This document shows positions 1,282 through 19,692 of a stretch of DNA of 24,000 bases, piece after piece. The notes under the pieces are model-generated. The model was not told the origin of the DNA. It saw only the letters and a list, made by a program, of their open reading frames with translations, and made no database searches. Location: assembly GCA_038258215.1 (NCBI GenBank), contig JBBSQC010000007.1, forward strand, positions 1 to 24,000, in the 5' to 3' direction. The translations under genes and the position numbers were made by a program. Within the stretch, counting starts at the first letter, position 1, and every line of letters starts with the position of its first letter. Source of the stretch: Actinomycetales bacterium (GTDB taxonomy: Bacteria; Actinomycetota; Actinomycetes; Actinomycetales; Dermatophilaceae).

Positions 1282-1283
1282 CG

Positions 1284-2863: not shown

Positions 2864-3498
2864 GCAGCTATGAGTTCTCCGTCGTCGACGTCTTCGCCGA
2901 GCCGTATGCCGCCGCGCCGCAGCTCACCGCGCGGCTGCGGATCCGGGAGACGAGCGGCGAGACCATCCACGCGATCGCGCTGCGGTGCCAGGTCAGGATC
3001 GAGCCGCAGCGCCGTCGCTACGAGGAGAGCGACGAGAGCGGCCTGCGCGCGCTCTTCGGCGACCGCGACCGTTGGGTCGACACCCTCAAGCCGTTCCTGT
3101 GGATGCAGTGCAACTCGATGGTCCAGGGGTTCACCGACGTCACCGAGGTCGACCTGGTGCTGCCGTGCACCTACGACTTCGAGGTCACCGGCTCGCGCTA
3201 CCTGCACGCCGTCGGCGATGGTGACATCCCGATCGTCTTCCTGTTCTCGGGCACCGTCTTCACCAAGGGCGCCAACGGGTTCGGCGTGGTGCAGGTGCCC
3301 TGGGACTGCGAGGCCTCCTACCAGCTGCCGGTGCGGGTCTGGCAGCAGATGATCGCGTCCTACTACCCGAACAGCGGATGGATCCGCCTCGACCACGACG
3401 TCCTGACCGCGCTGGCCGAGTTCAAGGCTCAGCACGGTCTGACCACCTGGGAAGAGACGCTCCAGAGCCTGCTCACCACGCACGGGGTCCAGCCATGA
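2860..3498 (+). CDS. Conserved hydrogenase-cluster protein of unknown function (recalled as DUF6084-like)
   Basis: ORF-track entry 2860..3498. Its ATG overlaps the upstream stop (ATGA at 2860-2863). Coding bias; no recognisable catalytic motif. Confidence 0.75.
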   Translation: MSSYEFSVVDVFAEPYAAAPQLTARLRIRETSGETIHAIALRCQVRIEPQRRRYEESDESGLRALFGDRDRWVDTLKPFLWMQCNSMVQGFTDVTEVDLVLPCTYDFEVTGSRYLHAVGDGDIPIVFLFSGTVFTKGANGFGVVQVPWDCEASYQLPVRVWQQMIASYYPNSGWIRLDHDVLTALAEFKAQHGLTTWEETLQSLLTTHGVQP

Positions 3499-4853
3499 GC
3501 GGCATCGACCACGTCCGCGCGATCGCCGACGCGGTCCTGTACGAGGGCTACCTGCTCTATCCCTACCGCGCCAGCTCCTCGAAGAACCAGTCCCGTTGGC
3601 AGTTCGGTGTGCTGGGTCCGCCGCGCGCGACTGCGGCGAGCTTCGCCGAGCAGCCCGGCCTGTCCTTCCAGTGCCTGCTCGATGCCCTCCCGGGTGCGGC
3701 CACCGTCGGAGTGCACCTGCGCTTCCTGCAGCTCCAGGTGCGCTCCGTCGAGCGGTACGCCGACGGCGGCTACCTGCCGGTCACCGAGTTGGTCGTCGAC
3801 GGGACGTCGTTGCTCAGCTGGGAGGAGGCGGTGGAGTGCGAGGTCACACTGCCGCCGTACGACGTGGGCGGTCCGCCGGTCGTCACCGCCGTGGAGGTCC
3901 CGGGTGGTGAGGAGGTCGAGCCGCTCTCGGACGCCGCGGGCACGAAAGTGGGCCGGATCCTGCGCCGGCGGTTCCCGTTGCACGCAGAGGTCCGTGTGGG
4001 CGAGGAACCCGACGACGGGTTCACCCGGCTCAAGGTGGCCGTGACGAACACCCACCCCGACGAGGTGAACGGCAAGGACGACGCCATCCGGTCCTCGATG
4101 ATCGGCACGCACGTGCTCCTCGTCGCCGACGGGTTCACCTTCATCTCGCTGCTGGAACCCTCCGAGGAGGCGGCCGGCGCCGCGGGCCGGTGCACGCAGA
4201 GGCGCTGCTTCCCCGTGCTGGTGGGGCCCGCCGGATCCGCCGACGTGGTGATGGGCTCGCCGATCATCCTCTACGACCACCCGGAGATCGCCGAGGAGAG
4301 CGCTGGTGCGCTGTTCGACTCGACCGAGATCGACGAGATCCTGAGCCTGCGCGTCATGACGATGACCGACACCGAGAAGGCCGAGGCCCGGGCCACCGAC
4401 CCGCGCGCCGCCGCCATCATCGACCGGTGTGACGCGATGTCGCCCGAGACCCTGCGCGACCTGCACGGCACGCTCCGTGACCCCCGCCGGGGCGAGACAC
4501 CCCCAGCCGGCACGGACTTCGACACCGGGGACGTCCCCTGGTGGGACCCGGCCGCCGACGAGAGCGTGCGGCCGGACACCGACAGCGTCGTCATCGACGG
4601 GGTCAGCGTGGCGCGCGGCAGCCTGGTGAGGGTCCACCCGACGCGGCGGGCCGACGCCCAGGACCTGTTCTTCGCCGACCAGGCGGCCCGGGTCACCGCC
4701 GTGCTGTCCGATGTCGACGGCAGCACGCACGTCGCGCTGGTGCTGGTCGACGACCCCGCGGCCGACCTGCACGAGGAAGCCGGGCGCTTCTTCTACTTCG
4801 CCCCGGATGAGCTCGAACCACTGGACCACGCACGAGAGGAGAGTCACCCATGA
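3495..4853 (+). CDS. Conserved hydrogenase-cluster hypothetical protein, 452 aa
   Basis: ATG 3495 overlaps the upstream stop (ATGA 3495-3498), in frame with ORF 3378..4853. N-terminus MSGIDHVRAIADAVLYEGYLLYPYR; strong GC3 bias. The antisense 472-aa ORF is a shadow. Confidence 0.75.
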   Translation: MSGIDHVRAIADAVLYEGYLLYPYRASSSKNQSRWQFGVLGPPRATAASFAEQPGLSFQCLLDALPGAATVGVHLRFLQLQVRSVERYADGGYLPVTELVVDGTSLLSWEEAVECEVTLPPYDVGGPPVVTAVEVPGGEEVEPLSDAAGTKVGRILRRRFPLHAEVRVGEEPDDGFTRLKVAVTNTHPDEVNGKDDAIRSSMIGTHVLLVADGFTFISLLEPSEEAAGAAGRCTQRRCFPVLVGPAGSADVVMGSPIILYDHPEIAEESAGALFDSTEIDEILSLRVMTMTDTEKAEARATDPRAAAIIDRCDAMSPETLRDLHGTLRDPRRGETPPAGTDFDTGDVPWWDPAADESVRPDTDSVVIDGVSVARGSLVRVHPTRRADAQDLFFADQAARVTAVLSDVDGSTHVALVLVDDPAADLHEEAGRFFYFAPDELEPLDHAREESHP

Positions 4854-4969
4854 GAACTGTTGGCTGGCTGACCACGGTCGCCGTCGCCTGCGTTGCCGCA
4901 GTCGCAGCGTTCGTCGGGGTCCGTTCGATCCCCGACATCAAGCGTTACCTCAAGATGCGCCAGATGTGA
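4850..4969 (+). CDS. 39-aa single-pass membrane micro-protein (not in the ORF track)
   Basis: Hand translation: MRTVGWLTTVAVACVAAVAAFVGVRSIPDIKRYLKMRQM, stop TGA 4967-4969. The ATG overlaps the upstream stop (ATGA 4850-4853). One hydrophobic helix followed by a basic tail. Confidence 0.6.
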   Translation: MRTVGWLTTVAVACVAAVAAFVGVRSIPDIKRYLKMRQM

Positions 4970-5003
4970 GGTGTCCCGAGCACCATCGAAGGAGGAGGTC
5001 GGC

Positions 5004-5525
5004 GTGAGTGACCCACCGGGAGCGCGCGCGGGAGAGGTCCCGATGACTCGAGTGCTGGTCGCCGGCATCGGCAACCTCTTCTGCAGCGACGACGGGTTCG
5101 GTCCCGAGGTCGTCCGTCGCCTCGCCGCGCATGGCACCCTGCCCGAGGAGGTCCGCGCCGTCGACTACGGCATCCGTGGCCTGCACCTGGCCTACGACCT
5201 CCTCGACGGCTACGACGCGCTCGTGATCGTCGACGCGCTGCCCGGCGACGGCCGCCCCGGCACGCTCACCGTGCTCGAGGTCGGCGAGGGTGACCTCGGC
5301 GCCAGCGCGTTCGACCCGCACGGGATGGCCCCGGTCGCCGTCCTGGCCGGATTGTCCGACCTGGGTGGCTCCCTGCCACCGACGTACGTCGTGGGGTGTC
5401 GGCCCGCCGACCTCGGCGACGGGATCGGGCTGTCGGACCAGGTCGAGGCCGCGGTTCCCGAGGCGATGCAGACGGTGCTCACCCTGCTCCGTGAGCGGGT
5501 GCCGACGCTGGACTGGGCCTGCTGA
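5004..5525 (+). CDS. [NiFe]-hydrogenase maturation endopeptidase (HupD/HyaD/HybD family)
   Basis: VLVAGIGNLFCSDDGFG, DALPG and a later HG motif are typical of the family. GTG 5004 sits 5 nt after a near-perfect SD, GAAGGAGGAGG (4989-4999). The alternative start ATG 5043 (MTRVLVAGIGN) is also preceded by GGAGAGG and fits family N-termini better, so the start is ambiguous. Confidence 0.85.
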   Translation: MSDPPGARAGEVPMTRVLVAGIGNLFCSDDGFGPEVVRRLAAHGTLPEEVRAVDYGIRGLHLAYDLLDGYDALVIVDALPGDGRPGTLTVLEVGEGDLGASAFDPHGMAPVAVLAGLSDLGGSLPPTYVVGCRPADLGDGIGLSDQVEAAVPEAMQTVLTLLRERVPTLDWAC

Positions 5526-5767
5526 TGTGTCTCGGGATCCCCGGTCGGGTGGTGCGTGTGCTGGACGGCAACGCCGGGATGCTCGCGCTCGTCGACGTGC
5601 TCGGGGCGCAGCGTCCGGTCAACCTCGGGATGCTGGAGGACATGGCGGTCGACCCCGGCGAGTGGGTGCTCATCCACATGGGCTTCGTCGTCGAACGAGT
5701 CGACGAAGCGGCGGCCGAGAAGGCCATGACCGGTCTCGAGCTGATGGGACGCGAGCGCGATGGCTGA
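5525..5767 (+). CDS. hypC: Hydrogenase maturation chaperone HypC/HybG/HupF family (copy 1)
   Basis: 80 aa, N-terminal MCLGIPG with the essential Cys2, GEWVLIHMGFVV core; TGATG overlap with the protease stop. Confidence 0.9.
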   Translation: MCLGIPGRVVRVLDGNAGMLALVDVLGAQRPVNLGMLEDMAVDPGEWVLIHMGFVVERVDEAAAEKAMTGLELMGRERDG

Positions 5768-8039
5768 GCGCCGGGTCCGCAGCAGGTTCGAGGTCTCCGG
5801 GCTCGTGCAGGGGGTCGGCTTCAGACCGTTCGTCTACGTCACCGCGAGCGAGCTGGGCCTCACCGGCACCGTCGCCAACACGTCCGCCGGGGTGGTGATC
5901 GAGGTGGAAGGCGCCGAGACCGCGGTGGCCGAGCTGGGTCGCCGCCTGGTCCATCGGCCTCCGCCGCTGGCCGAGGTCCACGACATCAGGGAGTCGAGCC
6001 GGCCCCCACGCGGCGGCACCGGCTTCACGATCGAGGACTCCGCGAGCGGCGAGGGGCGCACCCTGGCGTCGGCCGACATCGCGACCTGCGAGGACTGCCT
6101 GCGCGAGCTCGCCGACCCGGCCGACCGGCGGCACCGCCACCCCTTCATCACCTGCACCAACTGCGGCCCCCGCTTCACGATCATCACCGGCCTGCCCTAC
6201 GACCGGGCCGCCACGACCATGGCCGGGTTCGCCATGTGCGACGCCTGCCGAAGCGAGTACGAGGACCCCACGGACCGCCGGTTCCACGCCCAGCCGATCG
6301 CCTGCCCCGACTGTGGCCCGACCCTCGAGCTCGTGGGCCACGGGCCACGGGTGGTGGGTGACGAGGCCGTATGCCGTGCGCGTGACCTGATCGCCCGCGG
6401 CCTGATCGTCGCGGCGAAGGGGTTGGGGGGCTACCACCTCGCCTGCGACGCCCGCAACGAGGCGGCGGTGGCCGAGCTGCGTCGGCGCAAGCAGCGCGGC
6501 GACAAGCCGTTCGCCGTGATGGTGCGCGACGCCGGGGTGGCCGACGAGCTCGTGCGCATGGGTGAGGCCGAACGCCGGCTGCTCACCGGCAGCCGCAAGC
6601 CGATCGTGCTGCTCCCACGCACGGACGCCGAGCGGCTCGCTGCGTCCGTCGCGCCGGGCAACCCTGACCTCGGGCTGATGCTCCCCTACACCCCGTTGCA
6701 CGTCCTGCTGATGGAGGCACCGGGCACCGACGCGCTCGTGATGACGTCAGGCAACCTCTCGGGCGAGCCGATCGTCACTGACGACGGCGCGGCTCGCGAG
6801 CGGTTGTCGTCGATCGCCGACGCCTGGTTGCGGCACGACCGCCCCATCCACGTGCCGTGTGACGACTCGGTGGCCCGCTATGTCAGCGGTGTCGAGCTGC
6901 CGTTGAGGCGGTCGCGCGGCCACGCGCCGCTGCCGGTGGCGCTGCCGTTCGCCGTCGACCCGGTGCTGGCCGTGGGGGCCGACCTCAAGAACACGTGCGC
7001 TCTCGCCTCGGGTCGCTACGCCTGGGTGAGCCAGCACATCGGCGACCTCGACGACCTCGCCACCCAGGCGGCGCTGACCGCGTCGGAGGCCCACCTGGAG
7101 GAGCTCACCGGCGTGCGGCCCGAGTGCCTGGTCGCCGATGCGCACCCCCAGTATCGATCCAGCCGGTGGGCTCGCGAGCACGCCGCAGGCCGGGAGGTCC
7201 GCACCGTGCAGCACCATCACGCCCACGTGGCCTCGGTGATGGGGGAGCACGGCCTCGGCAGCGACGACACCGTCATCGGTGTCGCCTTCGACGGCACCGG
7301 CTACGGCACCGACGGGGCCATCTGGGGCGGCGAGGTCCTGGTCGCGGGCTACAAGTCGTTCCGGCGGGCCGCGCAGCTGGCCTACGTGCCGCTGGCCGGC
7401 GGCGACGCGAGCGTGCTGCGGCCCTACCGGATGGCGTTGGCGCACCTGTGGGCCGCCGGCATCCCGTGGTCCGACGACATCCCCGCCGTGGCGGCCTGCC
7501 CCGAGACCGAGCGCGGCGTGCTGGCCCACCAGCTGTCGACCGGGCTGGGGTGCGTGTCCACGTCGAGCATGGGACGCCTCTTCGATGCCGTGTCCTCGCT
7601 CGTCGGGGCCCGCCACACCGTGGACTACGAGGCCGAGGCCGCGATCGAGCTCGAGTCCCTCGCGCGCTCCGTGCCCGTCCCGGAGCCCTACCGGTTCGAG
7701 ATCACCGCCTCCGAGGAGGGCCCGGTGCTCGCCGAACCGGCGCCGGTCCTGCGGGCCGTCGTCGACGACGTACGGCGTGGGGAGCCGGCCGCTGACATCG
7801 CGGCCCGCTTCCACGCCGCTGTGGCGGCCCTCGTCGCCGACCTCGCCGACCACGAGCGCCGGCAGACCGGTCTCGACGTGGTCGTCCTCGCCGGCGGGGT
7901 GTTCCAGAACGCCGTGCTGCTCGACGGCTCCACCCGGCTGCTGGAGGCACGCGACTTCACCGTCCTGCGACCCAGGCTGCTTCCACCCCACGACGGCGGC
8001 ATCGCCTTCGGACAGATCCTGGTCGGCTCGTTCGGCTGA
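5760..8039 (+). CDS. hypF: Carbamoyltransferase HypF
   Basis: 759 aa. Acylphosphatase-like N-terminus (FEVSGLVQGVGFRPFVY) and two zinc-finger pairs (CEDC...CTNCGPRFTI, CDAC...CPDCGP), followed by YrdC-like and Kae1-like regions. The start overlaps the hypC stop by 8 nt. Confidence 0.95.
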   Translation: MAERRVRSRFEVSGLVQGVGFRPFVYVTASELGLTGTVANTSAGVVIEVEGAETAVAELGRRLVHRPPPLAEVHDIRESSRPPRGGTGFTIEDSASGEGRTLASADIATCEDCLRELADPADRRHRHPFITCTNCGPRFTIITGLPYDRAATTMAGFAMCDACRSEYEDPTDRRFHAQPIACPDCGPTLELVGHGPRVVGDEAVCRARDLIARGLIVAAKGLGGYHLACDARNEAAVAELRRRKQRGDKPFAVMVRDAGVADELVRMGEAERRLLTGSRKPIVLLPRTDAERLAASVAPGNPDLGLMLPYTPLHVLLMEAPGTDALVMTSGNLSGEPIVTDDGAARERLSSIADAWLRHDRPIHVPCDDSVARYVSGVELPLRRSRGHAPLPVALPFAVDPVLAVGADLKNTCALASGRYAWVSQHIGDLDDLATQAALTASEAHLEELTGVRPECLVADAHPQYRSSRWAREHAAGREVRTVQHHHAHVASVMGEHGLGSDDTVIGVAFDGTGYGTDGAIWGGEVLVAGYKSFRRAAQLAYVPLAGGDASVLRPYRMALAHLWAAGIPWSDDIPAVAACPETERGVLAHQLSTGLGCVSTSSMGRLFDAVSSLVGARHTVDYEAEAAIELESLARSVPVPEPYRFEITASEEGPVLAEPAPVLRAVVDDVRRGEPAADIAARFHAAVAALVADLADHERRQTGLDVVVLAGGVFQNAVLLDGSTRLLEARDFTVLRPRLLPPHDGGIAFGQILVGSFG

Positions 8040-8067
8040 CCCTCGCCAACTGCAAAGGAGAGCGCAC

Positions 8068-8352
8068 ATGTGTCTAGCGGTCCCAGGCCGCGTCCTGTCC
8101 GTCGAGGACCAGGACGGAACGGCCATGGCGCAGGTCGACTTCGGTGGACTACGCAAGGAGGTCTGTCTGGCCTACATCCCCGACGTCCGGATCGGTGAGT
8201 ACGTCATCGTGCACGTCGGCTTCGCGATCCAGCGGCTCGACGAGAAGTCGGCGCTGGACACACTGGCCAACTTCGAGAAGCTCGGCATCCTCGAGGAAGA
8301 GTTCGGCGACGGCTTCGCCCTCGCCGCCAAGCAAGCAGGAGAACCGCAATGA
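8068..8352 (+). CDS. hypC: Hydrogenase maturation chaperone HypC family (copy 2, longer C-terminal tail)
   Basis: ATG 8068 is preceded by AAAGGAGAG, in frame with ORF 7279..8352. [10 protein letters not shown]..., [12 protein letters not shown] core; 94 aa. Confidence 0.9.
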
Positions 8353-9473
8353 AGTACCTCGACGAGTTCAGTGACCCGGTGCTGGCCCGCAAGCTGGTGG
8401 ACCAGATCCACGCGGTGACCACGAGACCCTGGGCGATGATGGAGGTGTGCGGCGGGCAGACGCACTCGATCATCCGGCACGGCATCGACCAGCTGCTGCC
8501 CGAGGGTGTCGAGATGATCCACGGCCCGGGCTGCCCGGTCTGCGTGACGCCGCTGGAGATCATCGACAAGGCCCTCGCGATCGCCGAGCAGCCGGGCGTG
8601 ATCTTCTGCTCGTTCGGTGACATGCTCCGCGTGCCCGGCAGCAGCAAGGACCTGTTCTCGATCAAGAGTGCGGGTGGCGATGTCCGCGTCGTCTACAGCC
8701 CGCTCGACGCGCTCAAGCTGGCGCGTGAGAACCCCGACCGCCAGGTCGTGTTCTTCGGCATCGGGTTCGAGACCACGGCCCCGGCCAACGCGATGACCGT
8801 CTACCAGGCGAAGAAGCAGGGCATCGACAACTTCTCGCTGCTCGTCTCGCACGTGCTGGTGCCACCGGCCATCGCGGCCATCATGGAGTCGCCCAGGTGC
8901 CGGGTGCAGGCATTCCTGGCGGCTGGCCACGTGTGCAGCGTGATGGGCACCTCCGAGTACCCCGCGCTGACCGAGAAGTACCAGGTCCCGATCGTGGTCA
9001 CCGGGTTCGAGCCGCTCGACATCCTCGAGGGCATCCGGCGCACGGTGATCCAGCTCGAGTCGGGTCGCCACGAGCTGGAGAACGCCTACTCCCGGGCCGT
9101 CACCGCCGAGGGCAACCTCCCGGCGATGGCGATGCTGCGCGACGTGTTCGAGGTGACCGACCGCACCTGGCGCGGCATCGGGATGATCCCGCAGAGCGGG
9201 TGGAAGCTGTCCGAGCGATACACCGACTTCGACGCCGAGACGCGCTTCAAGGTCAGTGACATCCACACCGACGAGTCCGCCCTGTGCCGCTCGGGCGAGG
9301 TGCTCCAGGGCCTCATCAAGCCGCACGAGTGCGCGGCGTTCGGCAAGGAGTGCACGCCCCGCAAGCCGCTGGGCGCGACGATGGTGTCGTCCGAGGGTGC
9401 CTGTGCGGCGTACTACACCTACCGGCGCCTGGACCACCTGGAGCTCTCCGAGACCCGCCTGGTGGAGGCCTGA
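8349..9473 (+). CDS. hypD: Hydrogenase formation protein HypD
   Basis: 374 aa; CGGQTHSI and GPGCPVCV motifs; ATGA overlap with hypC copy 2. Confidence 0.95.
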
Positions 9474-10531
9474 TGAGCAACGACCTCGACTTCGAGGGCT
9501 GGGTCTGTCCGCTGCCGCTGCGTGACACCCCGGCGATCGTGATGGGCCACGGTGGCGGCGGAGCCATGTCCGGTGAGCTGATCGAGCAGCTCTTCCTGCC
9601 GGCCTTCGGTGGCGCCGCGCGAGCCGAGCTCGGCGACTCGGCGGTGCTGGAGGTGCCCGCCGGCCGGCTGGCCTTCTCGACCGACTCGTTCGTCGTGAAG
9701 CCGATGTTCTTCCCGGGTGGCTGCATCGGTGACCTCGCGGTCAACGGCACCGTCAACGACCTGGCGATGGCGGGCGCGACACCGCTCTATCTCTCGACGG
9801 CGTTCATCCTGGCCGAGGGCACCTTGATGACGGACATCGGCCGCGTCGCGATGGCGATCGGCAAGGCGGCCGAGGTCGCGGGAGTGCAGCTCGTCACCGG
9901 CGACACCAAGGTGGTCGACAGCGGCAGCGGCGACGGCATCTTCATCAACACCACCGGCATCGGCGTCATCCCCGACGGCATCGACATCTCGCCGGCGCGG
10001 GCCCGGGTGGGCGACGCCGTGCTGGTCAGCGGTGACATCGGCGTGCACGGCATCGCGGTGATGAGCTGTCGCGACGGGCTCGAGTTCGGCACCACGATCG
10101 AGAGCGACTGCGCGCCCCTGCACGGGCTGGTGGCCGACATGCTCGCCACAGGGGTGGACGTGCACGTGCTGCGGGACCCGACCCGCGGCGGAGTCTCGGC
10201 CACCCTCAACGAGATCGCCAAGGCTTCCGGGGTGGGCGTCGAGCTGGTCGAGAAGGACCTGCCGATCCCGGCCGAGGTCAAGGATGCCTGCGGCCTGCTC
10301 GGCCTCGACCCGCTCCAGGTCGCCAACGAGGGCAAGTTGATCGCGATCGTGGCGGCCGAGGATGCCGACGAGGTGCTGGCTGCGATGCGGCGGCACCCGC
10401 GCGGTACGGGTGCACGCCGCATCGGCACGTGCGTCGCGGAGCACCGGCAGATGGTCGTGGCCCGAACCGGTCTCGGCGGGACCCGCGTCGTGGACCTGCC
10501 GATCGGCGAGCAGCTACCCCGGATCTGCTGA
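9473..10531 (+). CDS. hypE: Hydrogenase expression/formation protein HypE
   Basis: ATG 9473 (TGATG overlap with the hypD stop), in frame with ORF 9284..10531. AIR-synthase-like fold signature and the characteristic C-terminal PRIC. Confidence 0.95.
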   Translation: MSNDLDFEGWVCPLPLRDTPAIVMGHGGGGAMSGELIEQLFLPAFGGAARAELGDSAVLEVPAGRLAFSTDSFVVKPMFFPGGCIGDLAVNGTVNDLAMAGATPLYLSTAFILAEGTLMTDIGRVAMAIGKAAEVAGVQLVTGDTKVVDSGSGDGIFINTTGIGVIPDGIDISPARARVGDAVLVSGDIGVHGIAVMSCRDGLEFGTTIESDCAPLHGLVADMLATGVDVHVLRDPTRGGVSATLNEIAKASGVGVELVEKDLPIPAEVKDACGLLGLDPLQVANEGKLIAIVAAEDADEVLAAMRRHPRGTGARRIGTCVAEHRQMVVARTGLGGTRVVDLPIGEQLPRIC

Positions 10532-10543
10532 GCGCCCGTCATC

Positions 10544-11287
10544 ATGAGTGATGAGGGGGCGCTGAAGTTCGCGCGCTATGCCTACCCGCCCAACCAGCTC
10601 GGCTACTGCGGTCCCGACGGTGCGCACGAGATGCTCGCGCCCGGCGCGGTGGCCGAGATCGAACGGCGGGCGCGGCTGTTCGACGGCGCCTGGGTCTATC
10701 TCGAGTTCCTCGCCGGTGTGCTCGGCACCGATGACCCTCTCTCGACGCCGGTGGTCGAGGCGTACTGGATCGGCAGTGACCTGCTGGCCGCCGTCGACCC
10801 GGCCGCCCTCGTCCGGCATCTGACGCTGGCGTTCGACGGTCAGGTCGGCGGGACGTGGCGGGAGTCGGCCGCGCGGGCTCGCGCGCACCACAGCTACCAG
10901 GTCTTCGAGGTCTATCCATGGGCCGCGATGCTGCTTCGTGGCCTGTCCCCCGGTCCCGCGGTGTCCGTGCTCGACCGCTGCCGGATCCGTACGGGCGTCG
11001 TGTGCGAGGTCGACGGCGAGTCGGTGGTGGTGAGATCCAACCTCCTTGCCTGGGACGGCGACTCGCTGATCCCGTCGCAAAGCCAGGTCGAGGCGGCCCG
11101 GTGGTCGCTCGACGGCCAGAGCCTGCTGTCCCCGCCGGCCGTCGGCGACACGGTGGCGCTGCACTGGGACTGGGTGTGCGACGTCCTCACGCCGGATCAG
11201 GCCGACCGCATCCAGCGGATCGAGGCGACCCAACGAAGCGCCGTCGGGCTGGGCGGGCCGGAAGAAGGCGGGCGCCGCCTGGACTGA
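10544..11287 (+). CDS. Conserved hydrogenase-cluster protein of unknown function (recalled as DUF6390-like); the C-terminal half resembles HypC
   Basis: ORF-track entry, 12 nt after the hypE stop. Residues ~146-228 (CRIRTGVVCEVDGE ... GDTVALHWDWVCDVLTPDQADRI) align by eye with the HypC copies in this window. Confidence 0.75.
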   Translation: MSDEGALKFARYAYPPNQLGYCGPDGAHEMLAPGAVAEIERRARLFDGAWVYLEFLAGVLGTDDPLSTPVVEAYWIGSDLLAAVDPAALVRHLTLAFDGQVGGTWRESAARARAHHSYQVFEVYPWAAMLLRGLSPGPAVSVLDRCRIRTGVVCEVDGESVVVRSNLLAWDGDSLIPSQSQVEAARWSLDGQSLLSPPAVGDTVALHWDWVCDVLTPDQADRIQRIEATQRSAVGLGGPEEGGRRLD

Positions 11288-11300
11288 GGGTCGCGGTCGG

Positions 11301-11843
11301 TCACCCGGCGCGGTCCGGCACGCCGCGCGTCTGCGCCAGGTGTCCCCCCAGGTATCCGCCCACGGACAACGCCGTCGCACCCGCCAGCGCCAGCCCCGTG
11401 CCCATCCCCCGGCGCCCTCTGCGACGAGCGACCCACGACCCGGCATACGCCCCGATCGCGATGCCGTTGGTGACGGCGTGCACCAGCCCCACCCTCTTCG
11501 CCCGTGGACCGACCGACGTCCACTCCGCCCAGCCCGACCAGGCTGTGGGTCCAACCGCGAGCAGCCCCACACCGACCAGCTTCCGAGCCGCAGCCGAGTC
11601 CCCGGCGACACCGATGAGGTCCAGGATGGTGGCCGAGGTCCAGCTACCGATGACGACGTCGGTCAGGACGGGGTGCAGGGAGTGGCCCAGCCACTCGCCG
11701 CGAAGCACGACGGCGCGCCGCCCCGTACCGAAAGCTGCCGTGATCGCGGGCTCGACCGCACCCACCAGTGGGTCGAGGGCGCTCGCCTCCTCCAGCGCGA
11801 GAGTCCACGCGAGCGCACGAGGTGGTCGTTCAGTCGGTGTCAT
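11301..11843 (-). CDS. DUF2231-like integral membrane protein
   Basis: ATG at 11843 is preceded by GAGGAGA (6-nt spacer), which shortens tracked ORF 11301..11963. LGHSLHPVLTDVVIGSW and several hydrophobic helices; the family name is from memory. Confidence 0.7.
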   Translation of the reverse strand: MTPTERPPRALAWTLALEEASALDPLVGAVEPAITAAFGTGRRAVVLRGEWLGHSLHPVLTDVVIGSWTSATILDLIGVAGDSAAARKLVGVGLLAVGPTAWSGWAEWTSVGPRAKRVGLVHAVTNGIAIGAYAGSWVARRRGRRGMGTGLALAGATALSVGGYLGGHLAQTRGVPDRAG

Positions 11844-11866
11844 TTCGTGTCTCCTCGTGGCCCGTG

Positions 11867-11925
11867 GTCGCACGGCCGACCGTCGTTCCTGCACACCGAT
11901 CCTCCACCTGCCGGGGCCGTGCGAC
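11867..11925. other. 11-bp perfect inverted repeat (GTCGCACGGCC / GGCCGTGCGAC) with a 37-nt spacer, between the DUF1059 and DUF2231 genes
   Basis: Arms 11867-11877 and 11915-11925 are exact reverse complements. Possible RNA structure or attenuator between two co-oriented genes. Confidence 0.35.
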
Positions 11926-11980
11926 AACCCGTTCCCGACCCTCGATCCGCGGAGGGGCACCAACGGCCCAGGGCCGGGGC

Positions 11981-12217
11981 TCAGTCCTCGGGCAGGTGGG
12001 CGAAGGTGGCCTTCGCGTCGTTGTACCAGCCCAGCGACTTCTTCGGATGCCGCCAGCGGCTCTTCATCGCGTCGCGCGCCTCCCGGTGGCTCGCGTCACC
12101 GGCCTTCTCAGCCTCCTTGAGGTGGCTGTCCTGGGCCTTGATGACGTCGTCGGCGCTCTCGCCATGGTGCTCGAGGTCGCACGGCCCCCCGAGCTGGCTG
12201 CAGGTCATCGTCTTCAT
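11981..12217 (-). CDS. DUF1059-like small protein
   Basis: MKTMTCSQLGGPCDLEHHGESADDVIKAQDSHLKEAEK... matches the remembered DUF1059 pattern (N-terminal Cys pair, His-rich). Three in-frame ATGs (12226, 12217, 12208) arise from a 9-bp tandem repeat. ATG 12217 has GAGGA 8 nt upstream. Confidence 0.7.
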   Translation of the reverse strand: MKTMTCSQLGGPCDLEHHGESADDVIKAQDSHLKEAEKAGDASHREARDAMKSRWRHPKKSLGWYNDAKATFAHLPED

Positions 12218-12266
12218 CGTCTTCATCCTCTGGTGAGCGGTCGGTGGGTGATGCGTTCGGTGGTCT

Positions 12267-12293
12267 GACGATCGGAGAGCCACGGATGTGACA
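12267..12293 (-). promoter_or_regulatory. ECF41-type promoter candidate TGTCACA-N16-CGTC upstream of the DUF1059 gene
   Basis: The minus strand reads TGTCACA (12293-12287), a 16-nt spacer, then CGTC (12270-12267). This lies ~40-50 nt upstream of the DUF1059 start and just downstream of the sigma stop. It matches the ECF41 target motif as I recall it from the literature. Confidence 0.6.
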
Positions 12294-12304
12294 CAGCGCC
12301 GAGG

Positions 12305-13141
12305 TCAGCCGCGGCGTGTCTCCCCGTCCCGGCGGACCACCTGCACCAGCACCTCGGGCTCGGCGCAGAAGGTGATGCCCTGGACGAGGCCGTGCGCGAT
12401 GGCGAAGTCGAAGAGGACCATGACCTGGCCACGGTGGAACCACGCGGCCCCGGGTCGATCACCCACGAACACCGGAAGAGCCGACCGGGCGCTGCCGTTG
12501 AGGAACGAGGCCACCTCGTGGCGACCCTCGATCTGCTCCGGGGTGCCGGCCAGGATCGCGGCCCGGTCGGCGGCCACGGACGCGTCGGGCGCGAGGAGCT
12601 GGAGCAAGCGGTCGAAGTCACCCTCCCGGGCCGCGGCCATGAACGCGTCGACGACCTCCCAGTCCGACAGCGCGTCCTCCGGAGCGGGCTGGCTGATCTT
12701 GGAGCGCGCCCGGGACGCGAGCTTGCGCGCCGCCACGGGGGTGGTGTCCAGGACGGCCGCGATGGTGAAGAACTCGAAGCCGAAGCTGTCGTGCAGCACG
12801 AACGCGACCCGCTCGAGGGGTGAGAGCCGGTCCAGCACCATCTGGAGGGCGACGCCCACGGTCTCGGCCAGGGCGACCTCCTCGGCCGGGTCCGGCGCGG
12901 TCTCGGTCACCGGGAGGTCGGCCCTCGGGGCGGGGACCCGGGCGCGCAGCCGGTCCAGGCAGAGCCGCGTGGTCACGGTCGTCAGCCAGGCGGGCAGGCT
13001 GTCGATCTCGGCCTCGGTCCGGTGCAGCCGGAGCCAGGCACCCTGCACGACGTCCTCGGCCTCGGCCGGGTCCCCCAGCACCCGCGCGGCGATGCGCACC
13101 AGTCGTGGTCGCTCCGCCTCGAAGGCTTCCGTCTGGTCCAC
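12305..13141 (-). CDS. ECF sigma-70 family factor with a fused C-terminal SnoaL/NTF2-like domain (ECF41 / SigJ-like)
   Basis: Region 2 (FEAERPRLVRIAARVLGDPAEAEDVVQGAWLRLH) and region 4 (LSPLERVAFVLHDSFGFEFFTIAAVLDTTPVAARKLASRARSKI) are followed by a ~100-aa extension. GTG 13141 is preceded by GAAAGGGTGG; alternative GTG at 13150. The tracked ORF extends to 13297 but has no support there. Confidence 0.85.
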   Translation of the reverse strand: MDQTEAFEAERPRLVRIAARVLGDPAEAEDVVQGAWLRLHRTEAEIDSLPAWLTTVTTRLCLDRLRARVPAPRADLPVTETAPDPAEEVALAETVGVALQMVLDRLSPLERVAFVLHDSFGFEFFTIAAVLDTTPVAARKLASRARSKISQPAPEDALSDWEVVDAFMAAAREGDFDRLLQLLAPDASVAADRAAILAGTPEQIEGRHEVASFLNGSARSALPVFVGDRPGAAWFHRGQVMVLFDFAIAHGLVQGITFCAEPEVLVQVVRRDGETRRG

Positions 13142-13178
13142 GGCGCCCACCCTTTCACTGTCGTCTGGTCGACCCCTT

Positions 13179-13205
13179 GACGACCCGACCCGACCGAGTG
13201 TGACC
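13179..13205 (-). promoter_or_regulatory. Second ECF41-type promoter candidate GGTCACA-N16-CGTC upstream of the sigma gene itself
   Basis: The minus strand reads GGTCACA (13205-13199), exactly 16 nt, then CGTC (13182-13179). This lies ~30-40 nt upstream of the sigma start. Confidence 0.5.
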
Positions 13206-13303
13206 CCCGGTGGTGGAACGACGTGACGCACCTGCGCGCACGGACGACGGTGCTGAGTACGAGGGCTCACGACGCTCCTCGCCGCGTGAGTCAGCATGGG
13301 GGC

Positions 13304-13708
13304 ATGCCTGCCTCACGGACCATCCTGCGTTCGGCCCTGCTGTCCCTGATGCTCTTGGCTGCCAGCTTCGGCACCTGGTGGGCCTGGCTGGGCTGGGACC
13401 ACGAGTACTACACCGACCCTGAGACGGGGTATGCCGCAGGCCCCTACCGTCCGTGGCAGGTCATCGGTTGCGTCCTCACGCTCCTGGTGCTCGCGATCCT
13501 CGCCCACATCGTCCTGAACCCCGTCCTGGTCGGCGTCTCGATGACCCTGGGCTTCAGCGCCGCCTTCGCCAGCACTGCGGTTCCCGACGACGAGACGGGA
13601 CTGGCCCTGGTGGGTGTGTTCCTCGTCGTCATCGGCATGTCGCTGGCCTCGGTGGTCCTCGGTCTGATCGCCTGGGGAGTCAAGAGCGCCGTCCGGCGCC
13701 CGGCCTGA
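13304..13708 (+). CDS. Hypothetical small membrane protein (about 4 predicted helices)
   Basis: ATG 13304 is in frame with ORF 13223..13708. MPASRTILRSALLSLMLLAASFGTWWAW... with alternating hydrophobic segments and GC3 bias. No recognisable family. Confidence 0.6.
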   Translation: MPASRTILRSALLSLMLLAASFGTWWAWLGWDHEYYTDPETGYAAGPYRPWQVIGCVLTLLVLAILAHIVLNPVLVGVSMTLGFSAAFASTAVPDDETGLALVGVFLVVIGMSLASVVLGLIAWGVKSAVRRPA

Positions 13709-16066: not shown

Positions 16067-16765
16067 TCAGCCGACGGCGACGAAGACGTGCGACGCGATG
16101 TCGTCGGGCAGCGACACACCGGAGGCCTCATCGGACCCCTCGAGCCAGGCGATGACCCGCGACCCCTCCCGGCGCACCCGCGCTGGGCGACCGGGCAGCA
16201 GCTTCGCGGAGGTGAGCAGGCTCAGGGCCTCGGAGTCCATCTGGACCGGCTCACCGATGCGGCGCACGACGACGGTGACCGGCTCGGCCACGGCAACCAC
16301 GTCGAGGGTCGTGAGCCCGAGCCGGAAGTCGACCATCTCGCCGATCTCCCCGAGCTCGGCCAGGCCGGGGATCGGGTTGCCGTACGGGGACTCGGCATGG
16401 TCCACCAGGATCGCGAGGATCTTGCGCTCCACCCGGGCGGACATGACGTGCTCCCAGCGGCACGCCTCCTCGTGGACGTACTCCCACTCCAGGCCGATGA
16501 CGTCGACGAGGAGCCGCTCGGCGATCCGGTGCTTGCGCATCACCCGGGTCGCCAGCAGCCGGCCGTGGTCGCTGAGCTCGAGGTGCCGGTCCCCCGCGAC
16601 GTGGATCAGCCCGTCGCGCTCCATCCGGGCCACGGTCTGGGAGACCGTGGGCCCCGAGTGCCCGAGCCGCTCCGCGATCCGGGCCCGCAGGGGGGTGATC
16701 CCCTCCTCTTCGAGCTCGAAGACGGTGCGCAGGTACATCTCGGTGGTGTCGATCAGGTCGGTCAC
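16067..16765 (-). CDS. ideR: Iron-dependent transcriptional repressor, DtxR/IdeR family
   Basis: GTG 16765 gives VTDLIDTTEMYLRTVFELEEEGITPLRARIAERLGHSGPTVSQTV..., close to the IdeR sequence as I remember it. All metal ligands sit at IdeR positions (M10, H79, E83, H98, C102, E105, H106), and there is a C-terminal SH3/FeoA-like domain. The tracked 979-aa ORF is an open-frame artefact upstream of this start. Confidence 0.9.
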   Translation of the reverse strand: MTDLIDTTEMYLRTVFELEEEGITPLRARIAERLGHSGPTVSQTVARMERDGLIHVAGDRHLELSDHGRLLATRVMRKHRIAERLLVDVIGLEWEYVHEEACRWEHVMSARVERKILAILVDHAESPYGNPIPGLAELGEIGEMVDFRLGLTTLDVVAVAEPVTVVVRRIGEPVQMDSEALSLLTSAKLLPGRPARVRREGSRVIAWLEGSDEASGVSLPDDIASHVFVAVG

Positions 16766-16772
16766 GCAGGTC

Positions 16773-16778
16773 AGCCTA
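16773..16778 (-). promoter_or_regulatory. -10 box TAGGCT close to the ideR start (leaderless or near-leaderless)
   Basis: The minus-strand TAGGCT ends 8 nt before GTG 16765, and there is no SD. Confidence 0.35.
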
Positions 16779-16842
16779 CGTTCACCGGACGACATCCGGG
16801 TATGCCGTGCGCCCGGGGTGCGCCCGAGCCACCCGCGCGTGG

Positions 16843-18045
16843 TCAGTCGGCCCGACGTGGGTCGTACTCGGGCAGCCAGCGCGCCAGCCACGCACCTCCC
16901 GCGAGGACCACCACGCCCACCACCGTGCTGGCGGCCCCGATGGACGCGAGCGCGGCGACCCCACCGACGAGGAGCGTGGCGCCGTTCTGCCCGACGAGCG
17001 AGAGCAGGCGCCATACGGACAGGAAGGACGCCCGACCCGCGGCGGGCGCGGCATCCGCTCCGAGTGTCATGACGATGCCCGACCCCAGCCCGTTGCCGAC
17101 CCCCATGAGGACGGCCAGCCCGCCGACGCCGACGATGCCGCCCGTCAGGGGGAGCAGCACCAGCCCCGCACCGATGGTCACCGACACGGGCACCGCGACC
17201 CAGACCCTCCCGTGCCGGTCCATCACGGACCCTGCGGGGTAGAACAGCAGCACCTCGACCAGGGCCGACGCCGCGAAGACCAGGGAGGTGCTGGCGGCAT
17301 CCAGCCCGACGTGCTCGGCCCAGAGCGGGACGACCACGACCTTGGCCGACCGGGCCACGCCGATCGCGACGACCCCCAGACCGACGGTGAGGAGCACCCG
17401 CCGGTGCCTGGCGACCACCCCGGACACCGGCACCCGGGTCGAGCCGTCGGGCGCGGACCCCGAGTCGGCCCCCAGGTCCGCGGCCCGCCACGCGAGCGCT
17501 GAGGCGAGTACCCCACCGGCCACGGCGACCCCGAACCCCGCCTGCGGACCCCAGCGGGCCACCAGCGGCGCTCCGACCAGCGGCCCGACGAACAGCCCGA
17601 TCCGGGTCACGCCGCCGAGCGTCGACATCGCGCGGGCCCGCAGGGCGACCGGCGCTGCCGCGGTGAGGTAGGACTGCCGGGCGATGAGGAAGACCGCCCC
17701 CGAAGGCCCGAGCAGGGCGACGGCCAGGCCGAGCACCCACAGCGAGGGGGCCAACAGGGCGAGCGCCGAGGCGGCGGCGTCCGCGAGGCCCGCGAGCACC
17801 AGCGCGCGCCGCTCGCCGATCCGGTCGACGAGCATCCCGGCGGGCACGGCGGCCCCGAACTCGGTGACCATCGAGAGGCCGACGACGAGGGCCGCGAGGC
17901 CCACCGACGCACCGAGGTCTCGCGCGCTGAGGGCGACCACGGGCAGCACGGCGCCGGCGCCCACCGCCCAGATCGCCGACGGGCCGAAGGCGGGCAGGGC
18001 GATCCGGCGCAGGGTGAACTCCTCGCCCTGACCCTCCTCCGACAT
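16843..18045 (-). CDS. MFS transporter
   Basis: ~400 aa with about 12 hydrophobic segments. ATG 18045 (MSEEGQGEEFTLRRIALPAF...) has GAGG upstream; the tracked start at 18063 is a TTG. Confidence 0.85.
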   Translation of the reverse strand: MSEEGQGEEFTLRRIALPAFGPSAIWAVGAGAVLPVVALSARDLGASVGLAALVVGLSMVTEFGAAVPAGMLVDRIGERRALVLAGLADAAASALALLAPSLWVLGLAVALLGPSGAVFLIARQSYLTAAAPVALRARAMSTLGGVTRIGLFVGPLVGAPLVARWGPQAGFGVAVAGGVLASALAWRAADLGADSGSAPDGSTRVPVSGVVARHRRVLLTVGLGVVAIGVARSAKVVVVPLWAEHVGLDAASTSLVFAASALVEVLLFYPAGSVMDRHGRVWVAVPVSVTIGAGLVLLPLTGGIVGVGGLAVLMGVGNGLGSGIVMTLGADAAPAAGRASFLSVWRLLSLVGQNGATLLVGGVAALASIGAASTVVGVVVLAGGAWLARWLPEYDPRRAD

Positions 18046-18159
18046 GCCCACCACCCGCCTCAACTGTCCCGCCCGATCCCGACACCTTCACGTCAGCACC
18101 AGAACCGACCCCGCACGAAGGTGAAGGTTCTCGCACCATCCTCGAGCCACCGGGCCGCT

Positions 18160-18179
18160 TTATCTTGACGTCAAGATAA
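18160..18179. promoter_or_regulatory. 20-bp perfect palindrome TTATCTTGAC|GTCAAGATAA, candidate operator in a divergent intergenic region
   Basis: All 10 base pairs were checked individually. It is 70% A+T within very GC-rich DNA. It lies 33 nt upstream of GTG 18212 and ~115 nt upstream of the MFS ATG 18045. Confidence 0.65.
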
Positions 18180-18199
18180 CTCACCGGGGCGGTCGTGGG

Positions 18200-18205
18200 T
18201 AGGTT
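18200..18205 (+). promoter_or_regulatory. -10 box TAGGTT positioned for a leaderless mRNA starting at GTG 18212
   Basis: The TAnnnT hexamer ends 7 nt before the start codon; no SD. Confidence 0.4.
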
Positions 18206-18211
18206 GGGTGC

Positions 18212-18943
18212 GTGGAGCTCACCATTCCCCACCGCTACTGCGGCCCACCCGAGTCCGGCAACGGGGGCTGGGTCAGCGGCATCGTCGCCGCTCACGTCCC
18301 GACCACGGGCAGCCACCCCGCCGTCACCGTGCGGCTGGCCTCCCCTCCCCCGCTCGACCGGGCCCTCACCCTCGAGGCGGCGCCCACGCCCGACGGCGCG
18401 ATCGGCGTGAGTCTGACCCACCGGGGCCATCTCGTCGCCACCGCGACCCCGTCGACCGGGCCAGAGGGCGAGCCGCCGCCCACCCCCACGCAGGAGCAGG
18501 TGCGCGCGGCCGAGCTGCGCTACGAGGGGCTCGTCGACCACCCCTTCCCGACGTGCTTCGCCTGCGGCACCGGGCGCGAGCACCCGGACGCCCTGTGCCT
18601 GCGCCCCGGGCCGATCGACGACGGCTCGGGGCGGTATGCCGCGTCCTGGGTCCCGGAGGAGACGTCGGTGCCGTTCGTCTGGGCCGCCCTGGACTGCCCT
18701 GGGGGCTGGTCCGCCGGGATCGCCGGCCGGCCGATGGTGCTCGGCACGATGACCGCGCGGATCCACGCACTGCCTGAGGCCGGTGAGCCCCACGTGGTGC
18801 TCGCCTGGCAGCGCGGCGCCGAGGGGCGCAAGCACCTCTCCGGCACGGCGCTGATCTCCCCCGGCGGGGAGGTCCTCGCCCGGGCCGAGGCCACGTGGAT
18901 CGCCGTCGACCCCACCTCCATCCGACCCAAGGGACCCGCATGA
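18212..18943 (+). CDS. Hotdog-fold (thioesterase-like) protein, function unknown
   Basis: ORF-track entry; VELTIPHRYCGPPESGNGGWVSG ... FPTCFACG ... ALDCPGGW. The fold assignment is a remembered resemblance, not verified. Confidence 0.6.
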   Translation: MELTIPHRYCGPPESGNGGWVSGIVAAHVPTTGSHPAVTVRLASPPPLDRALTLEAAPTPDGAIGVSLTHRGHLVATATPSTGPEGEPPPTPTQEQVRAAELRYEGLVDHPFPTCFACGTGREHPDALCLRPGPIDDGSGRYAASWVPEETSVPFVWAALDCPGGWSAGIAGRPMVLGTMTARIHALPEAGEPHVVLAWQRGAEGRKHLSGTALISPGGEVLARAEATWIAVDPTSIRPKGPA

Positions 18944-19692
18944 GCGACACCCGACCGACCGCGGTCGTGACCGGCGCCAGCAGCGGCATCGGCGCGGCCA
19001 CGGCACGCCTCCTCGCCGGGGCCGGTTTCCGGGTGGTGTGCGCCGCGCGACGAGCCGACCGGGTCGAGGCCCTGGCCGGGGAGATCAACGGGGTCGCGGT
19101 GGCGTGCGACGTCACGGCCGACGGTGACGTGGCCCGCCTGACCGAGGCCGCGGGTGGCACGGTTCAGGTGCTCGTCAACAACGCCGGTGGTGCGCTCGGC
19201 CTGGAGCCGGTCGCGAGCGGTGACGTCGACCTGTGGCGACAGATGTACGAGACCAACGTCCTGGGCACCCTCAGGGTCACCAAGGCCCTGCTGCCCGCGC
19301 TCATCGCGGCCGACGGGCAGGGCATCGTCGTCAACGTCGGCTCAATCGCCGGCCTGCTCGCCTACGAGGGTGGCGGCGGATACACCGTGGCCAAGCACGG
19401 GGTGCACGTGATGACCGAGACGCTGCGCCTCGAGCTCGTCGAGCAGCCAGTGCGGATCACCGAGGTCGCGCCGGGGATGGTGCACACCGAGGAGTTCGCG
19501 CTCACCCGTTTCGGAGGCGACAAGACCCGGGCCGACAAGGTCTACGAGGGTGTGCCCGGACCACTCGTCGCCGAGGACGTCGCCGAGGCGATCCTCTGGA
19601 TGGCGACCCGCCCCGCCCACGTCAACGTCGACCTGCTCGTCATCAAGCCGCGCGCCCAGGCCGCCCCGCACAAGGTGCTCAGGGTCACCTGA
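18940..19692 (+). CDS. Short-chain dehydrogenase/reductase (SDR) family oxidoreductase
   Basis: ATG 18940 overlaps the upstream stop (ATGA). TGASSGIGAA cofactor motif, NNAG, catalytic YTVAK. Confidence 0.9.
   Translation: MSDTRPTAVVTGASSGIGAATARLLAGAGFRVVCAARRADRVEALAGEINGVAVACDVTADGDVARLTEAAGGTVQVLVNNAGGALGLEPVASGDVDLWRQMYETNVLGTLRVTKALLPALIAADGQGIVVNVGSIAGLLAYEGGGGYTVAKHGVHVMTETLRLELVEQPVRITEVAPGMVHTEEFALTRFGGDKTRADKVYEGVPGPLVAEDVAEAILWMATRPAHVNVDLLVIKPRAQAAPHKVLRVT

Follow-up and report, generated by a model that had tools for sequence, protein, structure and literature searches.

A SigJ/ECF41-like sigma factor gene and a DUF1059-like gene, each preceded by an ECF41-type promoter motif, as a probable two-gene regulatory module of actinobacteria

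The window analysed here is a stretch of 24,000 nucleotides from an actinobacterium of the Dermatophilaceae (contig JBBSQC010000007.1, positions 1 to 24,000). Its minus strand encodes an ECF sigma factor, a small DUF1059-like protein and a DUF2231 membrane protein, in this order, and the first two genes are each preceded by a bipartite promoter motif:

13199..13205, minus strand: -35 element GGTCACA of the predicted sigma promoter (exact match; site kept in 67 of 81 related loci)
13179..13182, minus strand: -10 element CGTC, followed by A, of the predicted sigma promoter (16-nt spacer)
12305..13141, minus strand: ECF sigma factor gene, 278 aa (sigma2, sigma4 and an NTF2/SnoaL-like C-terminal domain; alternative start GTG 13150)
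12287..12293, minus strand: -35 element TGTCACA of the predicted promoter of the DUF1059-like gene (12 nt past the sigma stop codon; exact match)
12267..12270, minus strand: -10 element CGTC, followed by A, of the predicted promoter of the DUF1059-like gene (16-nt spacer)
11981..12217, minus strand: DUF1059-like small protein gene, 78 aa (Pfam DUF1059 below cut-off; alternative start ATG 12226)
11301..11843, minus strand: DUF2231 membrane protein gene (Pfam DUF2231, 38.6 bits; adjoins the module in the window genome only)

GTCACA-N16-CGTC has exactly two perfect matches in the 24 kb of the window, at 13204-13179 and 12292-12267. Both lie on the minus strand and have equal spacers, with GGTCACA and TGTCACA as their flanked -35 elements. 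Shuffled windows contained a mean of 0.14 such sites, and 1 of 100 shuffles contained two or more. The likeliest sigma start, GTG 13141, lies 37 nt beyond the end of the first site (the alternative GTG 13150 lies 28 nt beyond it), while the second lies within the 87-nt gap between the sigma stop codon (12307-12305) and ATG 12217 (or ATG 12226) of the small gene. An earlier, sequence-only reading of this DNA had reported the pair, had put its chance expectation well under one site and had judged both sites correctly placed relative to start codons, and all three statements were confirmed. When one mismatch was allowed, four sites were found versus 3.64 expected, only two of them beyond the exact pair. 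A third, degenerate promoter in the window was rejected, since sites with one mismatch are about as frequent as chance predicts and fall within unrelated genes. In many sigma promoters of the related loci described below, GTGAC, inverted relative to the -35 core, is found just past the -10 element. A leaderless sigma mRNA starting at this conserved GTGAC was also considered and rejected, as only 14 of 67 loci have it in frame.

The sigma gene probably starts at GTG 13141, which is preceded by GAAAGGG, given the conservation of this ribosome binding site and of GTG-GAC-CAG and the existence of a 278-residue database entry (P0001). Pfam analysis identified Sigma70_r2 (residues 10-71) and Sigma70_r4_2 (residues 101-152) without region 3 or 1.1, which is the architecture of ECF sigma factors, while the Pfam SnoaL_2 match was weak (19.5 bits versus a cut-off of 27). 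The two top-scoring NCBIfam models, by a wide margin, were the SigJ model NF007214, which aligns sigma residues 5-270 to positions 5-288 of 293, and TIGR02957, although both scores fall below the model cut-offs (198.3 bits versus 271 and 173.2 versus 323.25, respectively). The Mycobacterium tuberculosis SigJ structure 5xe7 matches the protein with an E value of 4e-33 and with full-length homology. A fold search with a predicted model of the sigma factor returned SigJ 5xe7, SigG1 7qh5 and ketosteroid isomerase-like folds; confidence in the whole model is low (mean pLDDT 57.7), with values of about 65-84 in the C-terminal domain. The profile, structure and fold matches support the earlier proposal of a SigJ/ECF41-like sigma factor with a fused NTF2/SnoaL-type C-terminal domain.

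In two species, mapped transcription start sites and reporter assays showed that ECF41 factors recognise TGTCACA-N16-CGTC (PMC3426412). Ecf41Bli of Bacillus licheniformis, Ecf41Rsp of Rhodobacter sphaeroides and SigJ and SigI of M. tuberculosis have the same sigma2/sigma4 arrangement with a fused NTF2/SnoaL-like domain, which corresponds in the window sigma factor to a C-terminal extension of ~100 aa with a SnoaL/NTF2-like fold. The group also resembles the window locus in having no adjoining anti-sigma gene (here the sole conserved neighbour is the DUF1059-like gene), in its (T/G)GTCACA-N16-CGTC promoter and in a very small regulon around a neighbouring gene, often with the motif before the sigma gene as well (PMC3426412). 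The two exact window sites fit the ECF41 target promoter TGTCACA-N16(±1)-CGTC, and the window sigma factor presumably recognises them. Unlike canonical members, however, it lacks the WLPEP motif, its linker reading PRADLPVTETAPDP. Three conserved motifs in the ECF41 C-terminal extension are mentioned, though not spelled out, in the text of the group description (PMC3426412), and we read DGGG and NPxKL from the canonical members in its Table S1; the window sigma factor has ADRAAILAG in place of DGGG, and EPEVL where NPxKL lies. Judged by its sequence, it is an atypical ECF41 member, since WLPEP and DGGG are absent and it scores below the SigJ and TIGR02957 cut-offs. For the same reasons, its regulation, and in principle also its specificity, may differ from those of canonical ECF41 factors.

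The small protein scored 19.3 bits against Pfam DUF1059 (PF06348), below the gathering threshold of 21.1, with positions 1-36 of the 56-position profile matched. A search returned 2744 homologues, with source names such as 'DUF1059 domain-containing' or 'predicted small metal-binding protein'. PF06348 is on record for 5 of the 120 close homologues listed, several of which are named 'DUF1059 domain-containing protein' by NCBI. C6, C13, H17, H32, H57, RWRHP and WY are invariant in the alignment, and the RWRHP...WY segment, invariant in the actinobacterial subfamily, is absent from low-GC homologues that have no sigma linkage. On this sequence evidence, the protein is best described as a divergent DUF1059 subfamily with its own C-terminal RWRHP...WY extension. 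Its AlphaFold2 model (pLDDT 94.5) consists of a beta-hairpin and three helices, and structure searches found no solved relative. The spacing of the cysteines is C6-x6-C13; the HxxxCxxC motif of zinc-binding anti-sigma (ZAS) domains is absent from the sequence, and neither Pfam nor the fold search of the model revealed an anti-sigma domain. The sole indications of a metal-binding role are the invariant Cys/His residues and the database names; the protein may bind a metal or sense redox state.

To follow the motifs and the gene pair beyond this genome, 81 loci were compared (the window and 80 related loci; 677 kb, both strands scanned). These come from Nocardioides, Aeromicrobium, Kocuria, Arthrobacter, Cellulomonas, Pedococcus, Ornithinimicrobium and other genera, and span at least four actinobacterial orders or families. 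Carriers of the module include Nocardioides sp. N13 (NZ_CP196809.1, locus L063), Aeromicrobium flavum, Kocuria sabuli and Janibacter. In 79 of the 81 loci, the small gene lies near the sigma gene. An exact motif precedes the sigma gene in 67 of 81 loci (consensus GGTCACAC) and the small gene in 63 of 79 (consensus CCGATCGTCAG), the latter count including three divergent and four separated arrangements. Both promoter motifs are therefore conserved in related loci, a check that the sequence-only reading had named. Of the 68 loci in which both elements of the sigma promoter are intact, 67 have a spacer of 16 nt and one has a spacer of 17 nt, while the spacer sequence varies, as expected for a bipartite promoter. 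In total, 130 exact sites are on target, and the 677 kb contain just one elsewhere on either strand, between the two genes of locus L008. The motif stays with the small gene when the latter is divergent (L048, L055 and L062) or 0.7-1.5 kb away (L017 and L050). In tandem loci with an exact motif before the sigma gene alone, the gap between the genes is at most 60 nt in 11 of 15 cases. A reverse search from the small protein led to three long contigs; in each of them the sigma gene immediately precedes the small gene, and the motif is at its usual position. The comparative evidence for conservation of the motifs and the gene pair is decisive. The association with a sigma factor does not extend to distant homologues of the small protein: neither a sigma gene nor the motif occurs in 80 metagenome loci of the low-GC subfamily, and no neighbour is conserved there. 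No homologue is a natural fusion of the two proteins, and the longer 'homologues' appear to be ORFs that were miscalled or are chimeric.

Besides the small gene, no neighbour is conserved across the 81 loci, the largest other neighbour cluster being present in 14. The suggestion that the output might include the downstream DUF2231 gene was not borne out: in the 80 related loci, the ~4 kb around the sigma gene contain no DUF2231 homologue, so of the proposed sigma-DUF1059-DUF2231 synteny the first part held (79/81) and the second did not (0/80), and DUF2231 was rejected as a module member. Read-through into DUF2231 is possible in the window genome, as the 137-nt gap after the DUF1059-like gene has no terminator-like site and no significant structure (fold z-score 0.48); an Rfam search gave no match in the window. 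A link to the hydrogenase cluster, which the sequence-only reading had mentioned as lying directly beside the module, or to DUF6390 fell away in the same manner, since no other gene cluster exceeds 14 of 81 loci, and we regard both as local accidents of the window genome. The expectation that the DUF1059-like gene takes the place of a COE gene (carboxymuconolactone decarboxylase, oxidoreductase or epimerase) is supported by these neighbourhoods: no COE gene adjoins the sigma gene in the window or is conserved in the 81 loci, and the nearest short-chain dehydrogenase gene lies about 6 kb away and has no motif.

Among the 373 ECF41 proteins in Table S1 of Wecke et al. (PMC3426412) is HMPREF0063_1507 of Aeromicrobium marinum, recorded as an orphan with promoter 'no' and no target. 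It is 64% identical to the window sigma factor and has the same indels and the same missing motifs, and is therefore taken as its orthologue; it likewise has no COE gene nearby. In contrast to the published entry, most of the 81 loci have both promoters and a conserved target. A WLPEP-less ECF41 branch (for example Ndas_0663, AMED_0965 and Acid345_3512) is 41-52% identical to the window sigma factor, has the same linker type and carries GGTCAC(A/C)...CGTCA before both the sigma gene and the target, as in the window module. Its target is a COE enzyme (CMD or oxidoreductase) encoded by a divergent gene, whereas the window module has a DUF1059-like protein, usually encoded in tandem downstream. 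Both the Ndas_0663/AMED_0965 branch and the A. marinum relative lack WLPEP, although they belong to the published ECF41 set.

We read the observed motifs, their placement and their conservation with the gene pair as a self-contained regulatory module of two genes, sigma factor and DUF1059-like, each with an ECF41-type promoter, and assign this reading a probability of roughly three in four. Promoter recognition by the window sigma factor, the transcription starts, the role of the small protein and the signal would then be as follows. The sigma factor, composed of sigma2, sigma4 and the NTF2/SnoaL-like domain, would direct RNA polymerase to GGTCACA-N16-CGTCA promoters, with transcription probably starting about 6-7 nt past CGTC. 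The promoter before its own gene would provide positive autoregulation, and the second promoter would drive expression of the 78-residue soluble, Cys/His-rich DUF1059-like protein as the conserved output. In relatives without a second promoter, the sigma promoter would serve both genes, as suggested by an inter-gene gap that is usually no longer than 60 nt. The module has no separate anti-sigma gene. By analogy with characterised ECF41 proteins, the fused C-terminal domain would act as both input and regulatory element.

The small Cys/His protein could instead also be the cognate regulator of the sigma factor, a metal- or redox-sensing anti-sigma factor or partner whose sigma-dependent expression closes a feedback loop. 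The gene order, sigma factor followed by small Cys/His protein, and the near-obligate linkage would suit such a role, and an autoregulated sigma gene followed by a gene for a small cytoplasmic Cys/His protein is also what is seen in ECF sigma/zinc anti-sigma pairs of the SigR-RsrA type. Across the related loci, the small protein is no less conserved than the sigma factor (62-85% versus 69-79% identity), RWRHP...WY is restricted to the sigma-linked actinobacterial subfamily, and the absence of WLPEP from the linker may mean that an intramolecular inhibitory contact has been lost in this branch. However, the small protein differs from the RsrA type in having no HxxxCxxC, no anti-sigma domain by Pfam and, despite a confident model, no fold match to any solved anti-sigma domain, and its gene usually has its own promoter, which it keeps when away from the sigma gene, as a target would. 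Homologues in other phyla have no linked sigma gene, so the fold must have a function of its own. We therefore consider a regulatory role unlikely. It is similarly doubtful, if more far-reaching, that a WLPEP-less, SnoaL-fused sigma branch has in the DUF1059-like protein a hitherto unrecognised type of partner, an anti-sigma or co-factor that senses metal or redox state; signal input would then have moved from the fused domain to a sigma-induced small protein.

Two further explanations concern the promoters rather than the small protein. Actinobacteria usually carry multiple ECF41 copies per genome (46 of 60 species) and all ECF41 factors have a near-identical promoter consensus (PMC3426412), so sequence alone cannot name the paralogue that reads these sites. 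Both could be read mainly by another ECF41 factor, in a cascade like that of SigJ on sigI, whose promoter is the one validated SigJ target (PMC5766207), which would make the window sigma factor a target and not its own activator. This is quite improbable given that the gene pair and both promoters travel together across very different neighbourhoods and taxa, which is most simply explained by a self-sufficient module, and that the -35 element consistently reads GGTCACAC and not TGTCACA, a preference also seen in the nearest ECF41 relatives without WLPEP and in their targets. That the motifs arose by chance, or that they form a protein-binding site with no part in sigma recognition, might be argued from the single shuffle in 100 with two matches and from the inverted GTGAC, which could suggest a palindromic operator. 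Against this stand the ratio of 130 on-target sites to one other, a spacer that varies in sequence but is 16 nt in all but one site, the correct strand and start-codon distance, and the identity of the motif with the experimentally mapped ECF41 promoter (PMC3426412); the comparative data effectively refute this explanation.

Within the two-gene module favoured here, the pairing of DUF1059 with ECF41 was not found in the ECF41 literature searched, which included the text and Table S1 of PMC3426412. Within that literature, the claim of an undescribed output module stands for the pairing itself, whereas autoregulation without a COE gene is not new, since ECF41 'orphans' without a COE gene make up 34% of the group and 38 of 126 have the motif before the sigma gene (PMC3426412). 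The module leaves the view of how ECF41 factors work unchanged. To our knowledge, neither the signals nor the physiological role of the ECF41 group are known. With over 12,000 sequences, it is among the largest ECF sigma groups (2019 preprint of the 2021 re-classification). One widespread actinobacterial orphan clade, found in Propionibacteriales, several Micrococcales families and others, can now be assigned a specific, conserved and very small predicted regulon, and the uncharacterised DUF1059-like 'small metal-binding protein' family gains a first regulatory context. Comprising two genes and two 26-bp promoters, the module is compact and, like other ECF41 pairs, could be used as an orthogonal switch.

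An exact search of the 24-kb window for the ECF41-type motif GTCACA-N16-CGTC returned two sites, beside the SigJ/ECF41-like sigma gene and the small DUF1059-like gene, confirming the two promoter motifs that the sequence-only reading had noted. The number expected by chance is 0.14, and two or more sites occurred in one of 100 shuffles of the window. Allowing one mismatch added two sites within unrelated genes, which is chance level for the window. The features that concern us here are:

49-11287, plus strand: cluster of [NiFe]-hydrogenase and hyp maturation genes with DUF6390 last, on the opposite strand to the sigma gene
12217, minus strand: likely ATG start of the small gene (78 residues), which an AGAGGA ribosome-binding site fits
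12292-12267, minus strand: predicted promoter of the small gene (exact motif), placed after the sigma stop codon (12307-12305) and ahead of the small gene
13204-13179, minus strand: predicted promoter before the sigma gene (exact motif), ending 37 nt upstream of GTG 13141
13223-13708, plus strand: predicted membrane protein of 161 aa, divergent from the sigma gene

GTG 13141 is most likely the sigma start codon, since it is preceded by GAAAGGG, fits the GGAAGGG-N-GTG-GAC-CAG arrangement conserved in relatives and gives 278 aa, the length of the database entry. Pfam analysis of the protein indicated Sigma70_r2, Sigma70_r4_2 and a weak SnoaL_2 match, while its top NCBIfam models, SigJ (198 bits, full length) and TIGR02957 (173 bits), score far above all others, both below their curated cut-offs. 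The closest solved structure is Mycobacterium tuberculosis SigJ (5xe7, E 4e-33). An AlphaFold2 model, poor overall (pLDDT 57.7) with an acceptable C-terminal domain, matches the folds of SigJ, the ECF56 factor SigG1 and ketosteroid-isomerase/NTF2-type proteins. The WLPEP linker motif and DGGG stretch are absent from the sequence.

The promoters were compared across 80 related loci, scanned as one genome per species, whose sigma factors are 69-79% identical to that of the window, itself the 81st locus. Represented among them are Nocardioides, Aeromicrobium, Marmoricola, Friedmanniella, Kocuria, Arthrobacter castelli, Cellulomonas, Pedococcus, Terracoccus, Ornithinimicrobium and Kineosporiaceae, along with many MAGs. 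A small-protein homologue (62-85% identical) is encoded in 79 of the 81 loci, so the sigma-DUF1059 part of the proposed synteny stood, while its DUF2231 part was found in none of the 80. This comparison strongly reinforced the promoter assignments: the exact motif precedes the sigma gene in 67/81 loci and the small gene in 63, with a further eight and four loci, respectively, one base off. The spacer is variable in sequence and 16 nt long in all exact cases but one, and the consensus is GGTCACAC-N15-CGTCA for the sigma promoter and GGTCACACC-N-CCGATCGTCAG for the small-gene promoter. Across 677 kb (both strands), the only other exact site lies between both genes of one locus (L008). The motif stays with the small gene when the two genes are divergent (L048, L055 and L062) or 0.7-1.5 kb apart (L017 and L050). 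Where tandem loci carry the exact motif upstream of the sigma gene alone, the intergenic gap is at most 60 nt in 11 of 15, which fits co-transcription.

A reverse search from the small protein found the sigma gene directly upstream, with the motifs in place, in all three long contigs (Janibacter cremeus, a Gordonia MAG and a metagenome contig). In J. cremeus (JACCAE010000001.1, L161 2083-2918) gene calling splits the sigma gene into two ORFs of 162 and 106 aa, suggestive of a frameshift or a pseudogene; the two promoter motifs remain intact despite this split, as does the small gene. Many sigma promoters of the related loci also feature GTGAC(C), conserved to a moderate degree and in inverted orientation with respect to the -35 core GGTCAC, 6-7 nt past the -10 element at the expected start site; its window counterpart (13167-13173) is a degenerate GTCGACC. 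A role for GTGAC as a leaderless sigma start codon was rejected, as only 14/67 loci have it in frame with the sigma ORF.

Clustering of all ORFs revealed no further conserved neighbour, the largest other cluster occurring in 14/81 loci; on this sequence comparison, conservation thus extends to two genes and two predicted promoters and no further. We consider it probable (roughly 0.75) that both promoters are recognised by the sigma factor, which would thereby boost its own synthesis and drive expression of the small protein, with the fused NTF2/SnoaL-like domain acting as a regulatory element by analogy with other ECF41 factors. Chance matches or an operator site would be a very improbable origin for two motifs so placed. 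It is also improbable, if less so, that a paralogous ECF41 factor reads both promoters, as SigJ does for sigI. The small protein may additionally regulate the sigma factor, an unlikely reading to which the tight linkage of the genes, the invariant Cys and His residues and the missing WLPEP motif all point, but which lacks domain or fold support: no anti-sigma domain was found in the small protein, and sequence and fold searches retrieved no solved relative. The small protein is hydrophilic (GRAVY of -1.1), devoid of any hydrophobic segment.

The small protein scores 19.3 bits against Pfam DUF1059 (cut-off 21.1), with the match confined to the profile's N-terminal half. Its AlphaFold2 model is confident (pLDDT 94.5), with a beta-hairpin followed by three helices, and residues invariant in 34 sequences include C6, C13, H17, H32, H57, R54-W-R-H-P58 and W64-Y65. 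Homologues number 2744 at E <= 0.001, named 'DUF1059 domain-containing protein' or 'predicted small metal-binding protein' at source. The family is narrow, given that searching 1.84 billion cluster representatives exhaustively and without a profile yielded only 362 matches. A distant subfamily (MKTMTCKQLGGPCD...) lacks RWRHP and occurs on metagenome contigs of mostly 30-45% GC, where across 80 loci neither a sigma gene nor an ECF41 motif was linked to it and no neighbour was conserved. This distribution indicates that the fold functions in its own right and that the sigma link is confined to the actinobacterial subfamily. The window gene begins with a 9-nt tandem duplication (ATGAAGACG x2, 12209-12226, minus strand), which would give MKTMKTM in place of the MKTM of 33/33 aligned homologues (two with 1-2 extra N-terminal residues); the AGAGGA site suits the second ATG (12217).

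ECF41 was defined by Wecke et al. 2012 by a C-terminal extension and WLPEP linker motif, with no anti-sigma gene, and its promoter, TGTCACA-N16-CGTC, was determined in two species through start-site mapping and reporters (PMC3426412). The only detectable targets were neighbouring COE genes, with occasional 'hypothetical' ones; orphans without a COE gene, mostly actinobacterial, made up 34%, and in 38/126 of these the motif preceded the sigma gene (PMC3426412). Table S1 of that study lists HMPREF0063_1507 (Aeromicrobium marinum) with context 'ECF', no promoter and no COE gene (PMC3426412); we take it as an orthologue of the window sigma factor, based on 64% identity and common indels. No DUF1059-like protein sequence appears anywhere in that table. 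The closest relatives there, Ndas_0663, AMED_0965 and Acid345_3512 (41-52% identity), likewise lack WLPEP and the DGGG stretch, and their promoters, GGTCAC(A/C)...CGTCA, precede CMD or oxidoreductase genes. The central proposal, an ECF41-like sigma factor with two promoters and a DUF1059-like output replacing the COE gene, appears right at the sequence level and, as far as the literature searched shows, is new: no DUF1059-ECF41 link was found there, DUF1059 itself appearing in one genome-annotation paper, with the subgroup descriptions of the 2021 ECF re-classification beyond the reach of this search. A database-level record of the neighbourhood may already exist. The module is relevant to research on ECF sigma factors and proteins of unknown function, and is not a new principle.

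The DUF2231 membrane protein gene that follows the small gene, earlier suggested as a possible co-target, was rejected as part of the module; like DUF6390 and the membrane protein adjoining the sigma gene, it occurs in 0/80 related loci. The latter protein has no Pfam or NCBIfam match. The hydrogenase cluster had been noted as lying directly beside the module; the 81 loci do not bear out a link, as no neighbour beyond the pair is conserved and the cluster is incidental to the window genome. It encodes a [NiFe]-hydrogenase large subunit, a NifU-Rieske protein, DUF5947, DUF6084, a HycI-type protease and HypF/C/D/E; DUF6390 seems to belong to this maturation operon, as its gene begins 13 nt past hypE. 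Elsewhere in the window, the iron-dependent repressor domains (DtxR/IdeR type) of a 979-aa ORF (16067-19006, minus strand) are confined to residues 750-880, and the real gene is probably its ~230-aa 3' portion, the long ORF being a high-GC artefact.
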